Source: Escherichia phage pEC-M719-6WT.2. From it: a DNA stretch of 64,000 bases. The notes under the pieces were generated by a model that ran no database searches, was not told the DNA's origin, and saw nothing but the letters and a program-made list of their open reading frames with translations. The stretch's first letter is position 1. Every line of letters starts with the position of its first letter. Location: sequence record OQ845958.1; one strand, written 5' to 3'. The translations under genes and the position numbers were made by a program. This document shows positions 117 through 10,074 of the stretch, in pieces.

Positions 117-659
117 ATGAAAAAAGTAATCGCCACCTTACTATTGACAGTTAGTATGTCTGCCCATAGCGTAGAGCCTACTTTCAGTAATGAACAAATG
201 GAGAACCTCCAATATGCTTATGCGTTTGGAGAACAGTTCCAGAAAAATGGTAAGTACAAAGAAAATCCGCACCAACATAATGGTTTGGGATATATCATGG
301 CTGGTTTAACCTGGCAGGAAAGTTCTGCTGGGATTAATACTGGATTAAATAAAGATAAGCATCATGCATATGGTATATTCCAAAATTATCTTCCAACCGT
401 GCGCGAACGCGTGAAACAGGTTGGGTGGACAATGACAGATAAAGAAATAATCAAGATGATAAGCAAGAGAGAGAACAGTGCACGCTGGGCTTATATTGAG
501 CTTTCATATTGGTTGAATATTCATAAGGGGGATATAAGGAAAACACTATCATCATATAACGCAGGGTGGAATGTGAAAGCTGGTAATAAGTATGCTTCAC
601 AGGTCCTAGAAAAAGCTAACTACTTAAAATCACGAGGCCTATTAAAAACGGTGGATTAA
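117..659 (+). CDS. secreted lytic-transglycosylase-like protein
   Basis: 180 aa; N-terminal signal peptide (MKKVIATLLLTVSMSAHS); motifs TWQESSAG, YGIFQ and SSYNAG resemble family-1 lytic transglycosylase (SLT) signatures. Confidence 0.5.
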   Translation: MKKVIATLLLTVSMSAHSVEPTFSNEQMENLQYAYAFGEQFQKNGKYKENPHQHNGLGYIMAGLTWQESSAGINTGLNKDKHHAYGIFQNYLPTVRERVKQVGWTMTDKEIIKMISKRENSARWAYIELSYWLNIHKGDIRKTLSSYNAGWNVKAGNKYASQVLEKANYLKSRGLLKTVD

Positions 660-661
660 AA

Positions 662-1021
662 ATGGTAAGAGTTATCACTTTAGCCATAGGGTTAGTATTC
701 AGCATGGGAGGAATAGCTTCAGTACAGAGCGACGACAACAACAGCATCGTAGAATATGCAACGAGGACGGCTAAAGATTATTGCGCATCAAGCAATGTGG
801 ATTGTGTAATCCGGTTCAGTGCCAAGCTCACCGCGGCATATAAAGATGGTCAAAATGATGTTGAACATACGCTTTTGAAAAAGAATGTATTATCCAACAA
901 ATATGAAAAGAAATTATTTGAAATGGATTGCATTCTATCAAGTGCAAAATATAAGGCGGCCTGCACCAGTATGGTTGACAGGTTAGTGGATTCATATAAT
1001 AGAGGATTGAACTCTAAATGA
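662..1021 (+). CDS. hypothetical secreted protein
   Basis: 119 aa; hydrophobic N-terminal signal-like segment; start abuts stop of upstream gene. Confidence 0.4.
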   Translation: MVRVITLAIGLVFSMGGIASVQSDDNNSIVEYATRTAKDYCASSNVDCVIRFSAKLTAAYKDGQNDVEHTLLKKNVLSNKYEKKLFEMDCILSSAKYKAACTSMVDRLVDSYNRGLNSK

Positions 1022-2970: not shown

Positions 2971-3264
2971 ATGGACCTTATTCGAGGACTTTCTCTAAGT
3001 CTATTACTAATGGGCTGTTTAGGCCCAAATATGTCCTCTGCTACAGATGGTAAATTTACCCAGTATGCAGATAGTGCGATGCAAATCTATTCGCAATTCA
3101 AAGAACCCAGCGTCGAGCAGTCCGAACAATTTTGGGCTTTTATTAAAACTGAATGGAACAATAAGAGTCAATGTGTAAATGAAATCACATGTCAAATTGA
3201 TGGCCGTGCGGCTGCAGTCGAATACGCTAAATTAATGAAGGTAAAATTGGAAGATGAAATTTGA
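2971..3264 (+). CDS. rI: lysis inhibition regulator RI-like periplasmic protein
   Basis: 97 aa (same as T4 RI); N-terminal signal-anchor segment; SVEQSEQFWAFIKT and C-terminal AKLMKVKLEDE match my recollection of T4 RI; next to tk as in T4; SD AAGGAG upstream. Confidence 0.7.
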   Translation: MDLIRGLSLSLLLMGCLGPNMSSATDGKFTQYADSAMQIYSQFKEPSVEQSEQFWAFIKTEWNNKSQCVNEITCQIDGRAAAVEYAKLMKVKLEDEI

Positions 3265-3637
3265 TGATTTCGTAACGGGTCGTGGGTCTGAGGTGGATTC
3301 ATATATTGGGTGGTTGTTAGTCTCTTTGGCTTATTTTAAATCCGCCCATCTTGAAACCAAAAGTTACGCCCGCCATAAAGCTTATGATTTCTACTTCACA
3401 GAAATCCAAGGTCCACTCGACCAGTTCAGTGAGCAATGGTTAGGTTACAGCGGGAAACAATACAAAGCTGCATTACCGTCCGCCTCGGACTTGCCGAAAG
3501 ATACAATTTTGTTTTTAGATGAAATGATTAAAAGCTCGGAAAGAGTCTATAAAGTTGTACCTAAGGCTATTCAATCGACTCTGGACGATATCGTTGGAGT
3601 TTTCTTTCAAACTAAGTATCTGTTAACACTAGAGTAA
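3254..3637 (+). CDS. hypothetical protein (rI.1 position)
   Basis: 127 aa; overlaps rI end; followed by intrinsic terminator. Confidence 0.45.
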   Translation: MKFDDFVTGRGSEVDSYIGWLLVSLAYFKSAHLETKSYARHKAYDFYFTEIQGPLDQFSEQWLGYSGKQYKAALPSASDLPKDTILFLDEMIKSSERVYKVVPKAIQSTLDDIVGVFFQTKYLLTLE

Positions 3638-3644
3638 TTCAAAA

Positions 3645-3673
3645 GGTCTGCCTTCGGGTGGACCTTTTTTTTT
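3645..3673 (+). terminator. rho-independent terminator
   Basis: GGTCTGCC-TTCG-GGTGGACC hairpin followed by a 9-T run. Confidence 0.65.
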
Positions 3674-3683
3674 CATTTAGGGG

Positions 3684-3713
3684 GTTTACATCCTCATAAA
3701 AAGGGTGTACTAT
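3684..3713 (+). promoter_or_regulatory. early promoter (GTTTACA -35, 17 nt, TACTAT -10) with conserved leader
   Basis: -35/-10 spacing of 17 nt; followed by conserved leader TATCCCATCAACTACTGAGGAG and ATG at 3742. Confidence 0.5.
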
Positions 3714-3741: not shown

Positions 3742-3945
3742 ATGAGAATTAAAAATATCAAGATTGATGCAGTTAATACTGGTGATGAGGTTGTTATCTA
3801 TCTTAATGATTATGCAATCTTTATGGACAGTGCCACTGATGAAGAAGTTGTTGAACTCTTACAGAAAGCTCCATTTGAACTGTGCGAAGAAGATGCTACT
3901 CATCTTTCATCAGCAATTTTCTCATTATCATATGTGGTGGAATAA
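3742..3945 (+). CDS. hypothetical protein
   Basis: 67 aa acidic ORF downstream of early promoter; SD GAGGAG. Confidence 0.45.
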   Translation: MRIKNIKIDAVNTGDEVVIYLNDYAIFMDSATDEEVVELLQKAPFELCEEDATHLSSAIFSLSYVVE

Positions 3946-4181
3946 TGAAACTTACAAATACCATGGTTTCATTGGAATATGAAACCAATAATCATATTCT
4001 TGAAATTAAGATATTTGATGACAGAAGCATATTTGCTGATTACCGCGGATATAGAATTCGCCTGGAAAAGGACGAGCTCAAAGAACCATGGCTCCTTAAA
4101 GATACCTTAAAGGGTTGTGGGTGTAAGCTGAAGACCACTCAAGCCCAAGAATTAATTTCTACCATCAACAAATACTGGTGA
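3945..4181 (+). CDS. hypothetical protein
   Basis: 78 aa; internal ATG of track ORF 3882-4181 chosen because of TAATG overlap with upstream stop. Confidence 0.4.
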   Translation: MKLTNTMVSLEYETNNHILEIKIFDDRSIFADYRGYRIRLEKDELKEPWLLKDTLKGCGCKLKTTQAQELISTINKYW

Positions 4182-4185
4182 TATT

Positions 4186-4368
4186 ATGTTAACTACTGAA
4201 CAGATTGAACAAATCCTTAAACTTGCTACTGCTATTGAACGCGATTCTTATGATATTGCAGTAGAACATTGTGAAGGCTATTCATATTCCGGAATAGAGC
4301 AGTGTAAACGAGATTTAGCGAATTCTAAAGCAGCATTGGTTGAGTATCTGAATGAGTTGAAAGAATAA
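4186..4368 (+). CDS. hypothetical protein
   Basis: 60 aa; translationally coupled. Confidence 0.4.
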   Translation: MLTTEQIEQILKLATAIERDSYDIAVEHCEGYSYSGIEQCKRDLANSKAALVEYLNELKE

Positions 4369-4625
4369 TGGCTGTTGGATTTGCAAAAGACGGAGCTGAA
4401 CAGCTAGAGATGGAAGCGGTTGTACAAGCCGCTATCACCCATGCGAGAGCACAAGTTGCAGTTGAAAGGGAGTCTGCTGAATTCTGTTTTGACTGCGACG
4501 AAAAAATTCCTGAAGCGCGGAGACAAGCGATTAGGGGTGTGATATATTGTGTTGGTTGTCAATCAATGCATGATGAAATTTTTAAACGTGAGCCACGAAA
4601 CTGTTGGCACAGGAGCATGAGATGA
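4368..4625 (+). CDS. DksA/TraR-family C4 zinc-finger protein
   Basis: 85 aa; CFDC-x17-CVGC four-Cys zinc finger at C-terminus preceded by helical region, as in TraR/DksA. Confidence 0.55.
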   Translation: MAVGFAKDGAEQLEMEAVVQAAITHARAQVAVERESAEFCFDCDEKIPEARRQAIRGVIYCVGCQSMHDEIFKREPRNCWHRSMR

Positions 4626-4716
4626 TTTACTATCTTGAACCTTGGGCTTGGTTAACAATGGCTATAGGGCCTGTTTTAATTGGTTTATTCTTTTCATGGT
4701 TAGCGAGGAAACTGTA

Positions 4717-4932
4717 ATGTTGTATGACCCAAGTGGTAATTTTGAAAATGGTGTGATTGTTCTGGAGCCTGAGCATCCAATTGGTGACGTATACCGCCCA
4801 GTTGAAGTGTGCGAATGTAATTTTGTTGCAGGTAATACTGGTGGGATTTCCATTGAGCAAGATGATGATGTTATTTACCTGGATGCAAGCCAAGTAGAAG
4901 CGCTTTATAGTATTTTAAAACATAACCGTTGA
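4717..4932 (+). CDS. hypothetical protein
   Basis: 71 aa; ATG preceded by GAGGAA; track ORF 4642 appears to begin at a non-ATG codon. Confidence 0.4.
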   Translation: MLYDPSGNFENGVIVLEPEHPIGDVYRPVEVCECNFVAGNTGGISIEQDDDVIYLDASQVEALYSILKHNR

Positions 4933-4942
4933 GGAACAGAAA

Positions 4943-5503
4943 ATGATTATTGAAACAACTGAATTGTTTGGCGAACTGACTGCTGAAGTGGTTAATAACG
5001 CAATCGAGCTTTGTCAAGAAGACGATAAAATCGTACTGACTATCCAAGATATTAAACCACTTTATAATTTAATGGTTTTGGATAGAGCTGACTATCTCAA
5101 TGGACGTAATAGTGCTCCTGTCGATATTAACGATGAGCTATACGCTTATATCTATAAAAATGAAAATGGGTTTAATCTGGAAAATGGTATAGAATGCCTG
5201 AGCATTAGCGATTCTGATAAATTCTTTGATTGTATTTTCAAACTCTTCCAGGAAGAATGTAAACCGGAAGTTGAATGGAAAGTTCCGGGACAAGATGCAC
5301 TGATTCGCTCTAGTGAAACGTTTGAAGGCGATGAAGAGGAACTAGATTATAATACTGAATTAACTGTGCATCAACATAACGGCCGTGACCTGTTATCTAT
5401 TGTCCAAAGACATGACGGCGAAAGTGAAGTGGTATTTACTAAGGACGAGCTAAAAGTTTTAGTCTCTTATCTGAACTCTGTTATCCCAACTATGAACTCT
5501 TAA
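4943..5503 (+). CDS. acidic hypothetical protein
   Basis: 186 aa, strongly acidic; SD upstream. Confidence 0.5.
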   Translation: MIIETTELFGELTAEVVNNAIELCQEDDKIVLTIQDIKPLYNLMVLDRADYLNGRNSAPVDINDELYAYIYKNENGFNLENGIECLSISDSDKFFDCIFKLFQEECKPEVEWKVPGQDALIRSSETFEGDEEELDYNTELTVHQHNGRDLLSIVQRHDGESEVVFTKDELKVLVSYLNSVIPTMNS

Positions 5504-6974: not shown

Positions 6975-7170
6975 CCAGGAAATCAAGGTCTTCTTATCGT
7001 ATGGAAGACCTAATAAAGGTCGGCGCTGGTATCTCGAAGCAGTCTGTCGGGAAACTGGCAGACGAATCAACAATAAGTACATATGCAAACCAACTCCCAA
7101 ACAAACTCGCAGGTTTGTTAACTGGGCTATCAATACTATAAGATTCCATAATTTTTGGAGTGCAATCTAA
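6946..7170 (+). CDS. hypothetical basic protein (possible TTG start)
   Basis: track ORF 6928-7170; TTG at 6946 lies 6 nt after a GAGGAGG SD; ends just before bidirectional terminator. Confidence 0.25.
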   Translation: MTTTIPIIDNQEIKVFLSYGRPNKGRRWYLEAVCRETGRRINNKYICKPTPKQTRRFVNWAINTIRFHNFWSAI

Positions 7171-7190
7171 GGGCCATCTGGCCCTTTTTT
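7171..7190. terminator. terminator hairpin between convergent genes
   Basis: GGGCCATCTGGCCC hairpin plus T6; lies between stop of + gene (7170) and stop of - gene (7193). Confidence 0.55.
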
Positions 7191-9228: not shown

Positions 9229-10074
9229 ATGTCACAAGCAATTAATGAAATTCGTTCTGAAGTTAAAAAAGTTGTTAAATTTGGTCGTATACCAAGCACC
9301 AAAGATGTGGTTTTAAATGTTCTATATATGATGTGGAATAAGTTCAATGTTTGTACTAATTCCGCTGAATTCACTAAAATCTTTGAAAAGACCACTGGTC
9401 TTCTTACATTAGAAGACCGAGTCATGAAATCTCTTCATCGTTCAGGTATGTTGTCTCGTGCTAATGCCAAAATTTTACTTAAAAATTATAATAAAGGTTA
9501 TGACCTTTATGGTCGTGCGATTAACACCATGACGTTTGATGAAGTGGTTAAAGACCTTTGGAAAAACCAGCGCCGTTTATTGGCATTAGGCGCTCGTTTA
9601 GCAAGCGGTCAAGATAAACAAATGACCTTTAAAACCAATAATTCTTTAGATTATAAACTATTTAATGTTATTAAAGGTCAAAAAGAAGGTGAATACAGTA
9701 TTTCTTCTTTTAGTGGATGTCAATATGATAATTGGAAATTCCATCTTCGTTTGGCATTGTCTGTACTGGAATGTCACGGTATTCTTACCTTTTATGATGT
9801 TAAAACTGGAGGCGTCCAGCGTATTAAATTATGCCAAATTAAAGACCAATTTGAAGTCAGCCCTTCAGAACAAGCTCCTAAAATGGAACCTGTTCCAGTG
9901 CGAAGCAATGAAAAATATTCAGAGCAAATTGAGCTTTTCACTAAACAGATTGAAGAGCTTAACATCACCATCCAGCAGCAAGATGATGAAATTTTCCGTC
10001 TGTCAGGACTGAATAACGCGGCGAAAGCCGAACGTCAGAAACTGATGAACGTTATTGAATTGCTTAAGGATTAA
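9229..10074 (+). CDS. hypothetical protein with C-terminal coiled coil
   Basis: 281 aa; heptad-rich C-terminal 70 aa. Confidence 0.5.
   Translation: MSQAINEIRSEVKKVVKFGRIPSTKDVVLNVLYMMWNKFNVCTNSAEFTKIFEKTTGLLTLEDRVMKSLHRSGMLSRANAKILLKNYNKGYDLYGRAINTMTFDEVVKDLWKNQRRLLALGARLASGQDKQMTFKTNNSLDYKLFNVIKGQKEGEYSISSFSGCQYDNWKFHLRLALSVLECHGILTFYDVKTGGVQRIKLCQIKDQFEVSPSEQAPKMEPVPVRSNEKYSEQIELFTKQIEELNITIQQQDDEIFRLSGLNNAAKAERQKLMNVIELLKD

Follow-up and report, generated by a model that had tools for sequence, protein, structure and literature searches.

A YbiI-like protein of the TraR/DksA superfamily in the early region of a T4-like Gaprivervirus, with TraR-type contact residues, an altered tip motif and an additional C-terminal tail

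As described by the Gourse and Darst laboratories, TraR-like regulators are built from three elements, namely an N-terminal helix, a globular zinc domain and a C-terminal helix (PMC9239242, PMC6970531). In TraR itself, the N-terminal helix (residues 2-27) carries the DxxDxA motif, with S2 located 4.3 Å from the catalytic Mg2+, R48 contacts the β′ rim helices, E46, R49 and K50 contact β′ Si3, and the C-terminal helix makes the β lobe-Si1 contact (PMC9239242, PMC6970531). The DxxDxA tip motif is needed for the function of TraR and DksA, and the D3N substitution in lambda Orf73 strongly reduced activity (PMC9239242). All five of the five phage TraR homologues tested in that work bound RNA polymerase (RNAP), inhibited the rrnB P1 promoter and complemented a dksA deletion; Gp34 of X. 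bovienii, which lacks D3, and Orf8 of VHML, which has an N-terminal extension, were both active, with IC50 values at rrnB P1 of 415 nM and 800 nM, respectively, as against about 50 nM for TraR (PMC9239242). The mBio 2022 authors cautioned that many C4 proteins classed as TraR/DksA can be inactive when the motif is missing. TraR-like proteins allow mobile elements to redirect the transcription of their hosts with no stringent response being triggered. To our knowledge, the TraR homologues tested to date are all of plasmid or temperate-phage origin. T4-type phages possess a large set of RNA polymerase modifiers, to which a secondary-channel binder from a lytic phage would add a further level of regulation; the literature on T4-like phages yielded no characterised DksA-like protein.

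Overexpression of YbiI was reported, as data not shown, to rescue the amino-acid auxotrophy of a dksA deletion, and the authors leaned towards an iron-related role (PMC2613031); apart from this complementation remark, no biochemistry was found in the literature on YbiI-type proteins. The YbiI branch is large and includes an unstudied E. coli K-12 gene, and a result obtained with a phage protein would inform that gene too. DksA/TraR-like genes are already annotated in phages (GenBank, PHROG 54), and for the gene described here such an annotation is correct and unsurprising.

The window analysed is a stretch of 64,000 nucleotides from Escherichia phage pEC-M719-6WT.2 (OQ845958.1). A sequence-only reading of this DNA had claimed an 85-aa ORF with a CxxC-x17-CxxC arrangement at positions 4368-4625, which corresponds exactly to the ORF list and its translation. 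That is, the zinc-finger CDS (4368..4625, plus strand; ORF list and Pfam) has an ATG start and its stop codon within these coordinates, and the encoded protein of 85 aa reads MAVGFAKDGAEQLEMEAVVQAAITHARAQVAVERESAEFCFDCDEKIPEARRQAIRGVIYCVGCQSMHDEIFKREPRNCWHRSMR (ORF translation). Its cysteines follow the pattern C40-x2-C43-x17-C61-x2-C64, made up of C40-F-D-C43, 17 residues and C61-V-G-C64. This spacing is no chance motif, as the protein is matched both by Pfam PF01258 (zf-dskA_traR; residues 38-66, 35.7 bits versus a gathering score of 24.9, E-value 8.5e-9) and by PHROG 54 ('DksA-like zinc-finger protein'; E-value 6e-20). An identical translation (100%) was found in Escherichia virus TH54, SP18_gp103 is 97.6% identical, the best protein-cluster representative shows 99% identity, and GenBank labels close relatives either 'DksA C4-type domain-containing protein' or 'TraR/DksA C4-type zinc finger protein'.

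Among the NCBIfam models, the YbiI-type model NF008243 gave the strongest match (E-value 2.9e-21), although its 75.7 bits lie below the curated cutoff of 96 and the match covers residues 1-71, leaving the tail uncovered. The TraR family model TIGR02419 followed (E-value 6.5e-14, 52.3 bits, below its cutoff of 59.7), and the DksA model NF033459 did not recognise the protein (E-value 0.11, 12.8 bits versus a cutoff of 105). The best sequence matches in the PDB were YbiI (2KGO, E-value 1.5e-9) and RNAP-bound TraR (5W1S/6N57, E-value 1e-4). When a profile of 57 homologues was compared by hhalign with a profile of TraR, lambda Orf73, VP882 Orf61 and PsP3, residues 13-73 aligned with TraR 10-70 at 99.4% probability. 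An AlphaFold2 model (mean pLDDT 73.7) comprises a helix at residues 5-31, a zinc ribbon, a helix at residues 62-71 and a low-confidence tail, and Foldseek ranked YbiI first, then RNAP-bound TraR (6N57_M; TM 0.56/0.64, rmsd 3.7 Å over 70 columns) and, more weakly, DksA (7KHI_M; TM 0.51/0.34); in BFVD it retrieved viral DksA-like proteins. The TraR/DksA C4 zinc-finger assignment proposed earlier is thus borne out by Pfam, NCBIfam, PHROG, PDB, hhalign and Foldseek, and the helical segment that had been placed before the zinc finger is indeed predicted by AlphaFold2 at residues 5-31. We conclude that the 85-aa protein is a member of the TraR/DksA superfamily and belongs to its YbiI-like branch. 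The TraR query was confirmed by matches of 100% identity named TraR and by the PDB alignments; YbiI residues 1-69 were confirmed by the 2KGO alignment, and its tail agrees with P0217 and with many other members. A TraR search of a collection of 5.8 billion proteins returned close TraR relatives only (at least 64% identity). The lambda Orf73 sequence was taken from NC_001416, where orf73 (593-814, minus strand), a characterised TraR homologue, carries no CDS annotation in RefSeq.

In the predicted model, the protein has the three-part build of TraR, that is, an N-terminal helix, a zinc domain with the IPEARR contact residues and a C-terminal helix, a build that it has in common with TraR, lambda Orf73, P2 Orf82, VP882 Orf61, VHML Orf8 and X. 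bovienii Gp34. The predicted long N-terminal helix (residues 5-31; 4380..4460, plus strand; AlphaFold2) is the counterpart of the TraR helix 2-27, which enters the RNAP secondary channel, and as modelled it is a single helix able to span this channel. The C4 zinc ribbon, CFDC-x17-CVGC (residues 40-64; 4485..4559, plus strand), includes by alignment the stretch I47-P48-E49-A50-R51-R52, which is identical to TraR I44-P45-E46-A47-R48-R49, so that the residues equivalent to those contacting the rim helices (R48) and Si3 (E46, R49) are present. C40, C43, I47, R51, R52, G57, C61 and C64 are invariant in the homologue alignment, and E49, equivalent to TraR E46, is at least 90% conserved; the equivalent of TraR K50 is a glutamine in the phage protein. 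The predicted C-terminal helix (residues 62-71; 4551..4580, plus strand; AlphaFold2), the counterpart of the TraR C-helix, is aligned by hhalign with TraR 59-68, and the extra conserved tail comes after it. With the TraR group the protein further shares the second Asp and the Ala of DxxDxA, and, as a likewise small product of a mobile element whose host is a gammaproteobacterium, it would meet an RNAP in which the lineage-specific Si1 and Si3 inserts are available. It differs from TraR by a Phe in place of the first Asp, two extra N-terminal residues and a conserved tail of 12-14 residues, overall identity being about 29%; moreover, the TraR group belongs to plasmids and temperate phages, whereas this protein comes from an obligately lytic T4-like phage. 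The likeness to DksA (E. coli, 151 aa) consists of the C4 zinc-finger Pfam family and of D8/A10, corresponding to DksA D74/A76. Unlike DksA, the phage protein has a single N-terminal helix instead of a two-helix coiled coil and about half the length, and we infer that it would act without ppGpp, as TraR does.

The closest described protein, by both sequence and fold, is E. coli YbiI (2KGO; NF008243 / PRK11019), with 88 aa compared with 85 aa for the phage protein. The two have in common the MA-x-G-[FW]-A-x-D-x-A beginning, the IPxARR motif, the zinc-finger spacing and a conserved basic tail that has R as its last residue. They differ in the sequence of that tail (FKREPRNCWHRSMR in the phage, YNRRGSKDSQLR in YbiI) and at two positions, Glu11 and His25 of the phage protein being Val and Arg, respectively, in YbiI; and, unlike chromosomal YbiI, the present gene is carried by a phage within an early operon and its product scores below the NF008243 equivalog cutoff. 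For the wider family, a profile search of the full protein library gave 2794 cluster representatives at E ≤ 1e-3, 349 of them at E ≤ 1e-10. Nearly all of the best 150 of the 2794 are about 88 aa long, begin with MA-x-G-[WF]-x-x-D-G-A-V-Q and end in ..YNRRGSKDSQLR. The N-terminal signature of the branch, MA-x-G-[FW]-x-x-D-G-A, is present in the phage protein as MAVGFAKDGA, the bacterial versions being MAGGFAKDGA or MASGWANDDA.

The subfamily with the phage-type tail was found in Gaprivervirus, Kanagawavirus, Marfavirus, Citrobacter phage Moon, Yersinia phages and Asteriusvirus jumbo phages, and YbiI-type genes with the bacterial tail occur in Slopekvirus KP27, Karamvirus PG7, Jiaodavirus KPV15 and Acinetobacter phage Acj61. 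In Klebsiella phage KP27 the gene (301-561 of L013) occupies another locus, where the primase gene 61 follows it immediately. The bacterial tail in these genera and, at least in KP27, the other locus suggest several independent acquisitions or relocations.

Codon-level comparison of the gene with its homologues in six other phages (SP18, Edwardsiella PEi26, Klebsiella Marfa, Enterobacter Entb_45 and two Asteriusvirus jumbo phages) gave dN/dS values of 0.05-0.16 where these were computable; between distant homologues, synonymous sites were saturated. Purifying selection on the gene is thus strong.

The N-terminal tip (codons 1-12, MAVGFAKDGAEQ; 4368..4403, plus strand) has F5..D8.A10 in place of TraR D3..D6.A8. 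These residues are unchanged in five of the six phage homologues, the sixth, from Asteriusvirus Ecwhy_1, showing the conservative change F5Y, although up to 91% of synonymous sites differ. M1, A2 and G4 do not vary across 57 phage and bacterial homologues, and conservation is at least 90% at A6, K7, D8, G9, A10 and Q12. A lack of the acidic tip residues had been named beforehand, together with a lack of RNAP interaction, as what would refute the functional reading, and for the tip the outcome is divided: the second Asp is there as D8, but the position of the first is taken by F5. That is, the phage tip F5-A-K-D8-G-A10 is an FxxDxA rather than a full DxxDxA motif, with the second Asp and the Ala kept, and Phe or Trp occupies the position of the first Asp throughout the subfamily. 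The more distant YbiI-type proteins of T4-like genera, namely those with the bacterial tail (KP27, PG7, KPV15 and Acj61), lack the Ala and have GFGPADG or GWGPSDD as their tip. MAFFT placed F5-A-K-D8-G-A10 on TraR D3-E-A-D6-E-A8, with the phage N-terminus two residues longer, and the distance from the Asp to the first Cys is 32 residues from D8 in the phage protein, 31 from D8 in YbiI and 31 from D6 to C37 in TraR. Since the local hhalign alignment of the phage/YbiI profile with TraR starts at residue 13 and leaves the tip outside, the equivalence of D8 with TraR D6 rests on MAFFT and on this spacing; the correspondence of D8/A10 with TraR D6/A8 and DksA D74/A76 is therefore reasoned rather than proven. 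The two extra N-terminal residues may mean that the fit in the channel differs from that of TraR. With the first Asp missing and the N-terminus longer, we would expect the protein either to inhibit in the manner of TraR but less strongly, or to act on the active site in a modified way.

The second peculiar segment is the C-terminal tail (residues 72-85, FKREPRNCWHRSMR; 4581..4622, plus strand), which is nearly invariant in the phage subfamily and absent from TraR. The phage homologues share residues 72-85 except for residue 75, where E is changed to D or P in both Asteriusvirus genes, and R77-S83 is invariant in 40 of the 41 full-length phage-type clusters, the subfamily consensus being FKRxPRNCWHRSMR. 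Most codons of the tail and tip stretches differ synonymously among phages, and in Asteriusvirus the tail is conserved with no gene overlapping the 3′ end; this indicates that tail conservation acts on the protein, and an overlapping gene or an RNA element was rejected as its cause. The ..YNRRGSKDSQLR ending of bacterial YbiI proteins is not retained in the phage protein, which has ..PRNCWHRSMR instead. Two intermediate tails, ..HNRKVWHRSMR in P0206 and YNRKANYHTQLR in P0225, suggest from sequence that the phage and bacterial tails are homologous. A nearly invariant tail with no counterpart in TraR could indicate another target.

Regarding its genomic setting, the 4 kb around the gene share 97.7% identity with Escherichia phage ECML-359; for SP18, VR7, VR20 and further Gaprivervirus genomes the figure is 88-95%. 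Nucleotide identity thus confirms that the window is of phage origin, as had been proposed, and assigns it to Gaprivervirus within the T4-like Tevenvirinae. The gene order tk, rI, mobD.6, mobD.5, mobD.3, zinc-finger gene, mobD.1, nrdC.11 is that of the T4 early region in its direction of transcription. An intrinsic terminator-like hairpin with a 12-bp stem followed by a T-run (3641..3668, plus strand) ends the upstream unit after mobD.6/rI.-1 and is kept at the equivalent position in SP18, T4 and Marfa. Between mobD.6 and mobD.5, a promoter scan found a σ70 / T4-early-type promoter-like site (3685..3713, plus strand; (GG)TTTACA-17-TACTAT), which reads GGTTTACA-17-TACTAT and in which GGTTTAC and TA.TAT are invariant across the window, SP18, T4 and Marfa. 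The layout of terminator and promoter-like site is also kept in the T4 rI.-1/mobD.5 intergenic region, and the hexamers and layout resemble those of a T4 early promoter. This site probably drives the genes from mobD.5 through the zinc-finger gene to nrdC.11, the next strong terminator downstream being located after nrdC.11 at 7169-7186. A scan for the MotA-box middle-promoter pattern gave none near the zinc-finger gene, the nearest match being at 10061. Position and conserved promoter context thus support the earlier description of the gene as an early one.

The stop codon of the upstream mobD.3-like gene (DUF7438; 4186..4368, plus strand) overlaps the start of the zinc-finger gene (TAATG), and the ATG of a downstream ORF for a hydrophobic peptide of 31 aa (4622..4717, plus strand; MIYYLEPWAWLTMAIGPVLIGLFFSWLARKL), preceded by GGAG 6 nt upstream, overlaps the stop of the zinc-finger gene (ATGA), an overlap through which the short ORF is translationally coupled to the zinc-finger gene. 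The peptide of Mosigvirus ZQ3 differs from this one at a single residue (I15V) and is annotated there, whereas the SP18 copy is unannotated; no Pfam match was found for the 31-aa ORF. A partner-dependent mode of action is known for QisA-TraR of VP882 (bioRxiv 10.64898/2026.07.27.740977). By analogy, an obligatory partner gene was considered and rejected, as both the upstream and downstream neighbours vary among phage genera; since the upstream neighbour differs in other phages, the mobD.3-like gene is no obligatory partner. Several other features of the region are worth recording. A 78-aa ORF (3945-4181, plus strand; MKLTNTMVSLEYETNNH...), for which no Pfam match was found, occupies 240 nt for which neither EAWsc9 nor the RefSeq entry of SP18 has an annotation. 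The mobD.6/rI.-1 homologue (3254-3637, plus strand) is named 'starvation-inducible transcriptional regulator' by RefSeq in SP18, T4 and Marfa; it matches Pfam DUF5856 only, and the product name looks unsupported. The mobD.1 homologue (4943-5503, plus strand) matches Pfam T4_y05I_N and T4_y05I_C ('y05I-like putative transcription factor'); it is a further uncharacterised candidate regulator within the early unit of the zinc-finger gene. A tRNA scan and Rfam at the gathering threshold detected nothing in the whole 64-kb window (1-64000).

Taken by analogy with the characterised proteins, the most likely function, which we regard as probable though well short of certain, is ppGpp-independent binding in the RNAP secondary channel, with exclusion of DksA and Gre factors and a TraR-like shift of initiation. 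Host σ70 RNAP would transcribe the gene soon after infection from the conserved promoter at about 3685-3713, and the protein, which would not bind DNA, would enter the secondary (NTP-entry) channel of the host enzyme. Its zinc domain would contact the β′ rim helices and Si3 through I-P-E-A-R-R, the long N-terminal helix would run down the channel and bring D8/A10 beside active-site elements, and the C-terminal helix would pack against the β lobe. Occupation of the site would exclude DksA, GreA and GreB and, without ppGpp, promoters whose open complexes are short-lived (those of rRNA and ribosomal-protein genes) would be disfavoured, releasing polymerase and resources to phage genes. Host DksA lowers T4 early transcription and halves the burst size, deletion of dksA doubling the burst and raising early transcripts (PMC6024815). 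This effect of DksA on early transcription and burst provides a plausible selective reason for a T4-like phage to occupy the site. Weighing against this function are the incomplete tip motif, the longer N-terminus, the missing Ala in more distant relatives, NCBIfam scores below the curated cutoffs, the tail without a TraR counterpart, the dispensability of the gene and the finding that DksA did not inhibit T4 early promoters in vitro (PMC6024815). Binding to RNAP and redirection of host transcription by the phage protein, as the sequence-only reading suggested, are plausible by homology. The analysis shows homology, a predicted fold, conserved contact residues, purifying selection and an early-type promoter context; that the protein binds RNAP, how strongly and in which direction transcription would change, and what the phage would gain are points that we infer.

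The altered tip and the extra tail could also mean that YbiI-type proteins, including the phage branch, form a mechanistically distinct class of secondary-channel proteins, a tentative idea that we would entertain as possible. The MAxG[FW] beginning would then reach two residues further than TraR towards or into the catalytic centre, and the basic tail would make a second contact, with RNAP or with some other target. If so, the outcome would be unlike that of TraR or DksA, e.g. occlusion of the active site or selective displacement of DksA and Gre factors during lytic infection.

It is rather unlikely, in our estimate, that the protein is an occupier of the channel without TraR-like allostery, one that would keep DksA and GreA/GreB off RNAP and so relieve the effect of DksA on early transcription, with no shutdown of rRNA promoters. 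Such a role would be consistent with the retention of the rim-helix and Si3 contact residues while the first tip Asp is absent, with the requirement of the DksA tip aspartates for function but not for binding (PMC9239242), and with the doubled T4 burst and raised early transcripts on dksA deletion (PMC6024815). However, the tip MAVGFAKDGAEQ is among the most conserved segments of the protein, which argues for an active role over that of a passive plug, Gp34 still inhibited rrnB P1 without D3 (PMC9239242), and YbiI reportedly complemented dksA, something that a pure competitor should not do (PMC2613031).

We consider it improbable that the protein has a YbiI-type function unrelated to RNAP, in which the zinc ribbon would serve as a scaffold and the two nearly invariant ends peculiar to the subfamily, MAxG[FW]..D and the basic tail, would bind another conserved host target; candidates would be nucleic acids, factors associated with the ribosome, or proteins related to stress or iron. 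TraR residues in contact with RNAP are conserved in the phage protein, its best structural matches are RNAP-bound TraR and DksA, the bacterial YbiI genes examined had no conserved operon pointing to another pathway, and no defence-system model was matched, all of which speak against such a function, even though TraR lacks the tail (YNRRGSKDSQLR / RNCWHRSMR), which bacterial and phage members alike conserve, and, according to the mBio 2022 authors, many C4 proteins classed as TraR/DksA act unlike them without the motif. The defence models were those of PADLOC, and the genomic context of two bacterial YbiI-type genes revealed neither conserved neighbours nor any functional hint.

Finally, a chance ORF or a decaying remnant without function, which might be suspected from the truncated fusion derivatives of 49-64 aa in Mosigvirus-type phages and from the lack of the gene at this locus in T4, has practically no probability left and is effectively ruled out by the selection analysis, given the low dN/dS with saturated synonymous change and the full-length form of 84-86 aa kept in Gaprivervirus, Kanagawavirus, Marfavirus, the Citrobacter phage Moon lineage, Yersinia phages and Asteriusvirus. 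No homologue was found at the equivalent locus of T4, and Mosigvirus retains only a fusion remnant of 54 aa; the absence in the former and the truncation in the latter indicate that the gene is dispensable. The fusion ORFs of 49-64 aa (P0048, P0050, P0058, P0059 and P0063; PHROG 25948; e.g. 2459-2623 of L006, Mosigvirus vB_EcoM-ZQ3) join roughly 24 N-terminal residues from a DUF7189-like protein (MLYDYTGKSEDGVLELLPESAEDD) to the 30 C-terminal ones of the zinc-finger protein (VIYCVGCQSMHDEIFKREPRNCWHRSMR). They lack the N-terminal helix and the first CxxC, yet an open frame and the tail are retained. At the junction both parental sequences read D/G-V-I-Y, suggestive of a deletion at microhomology.
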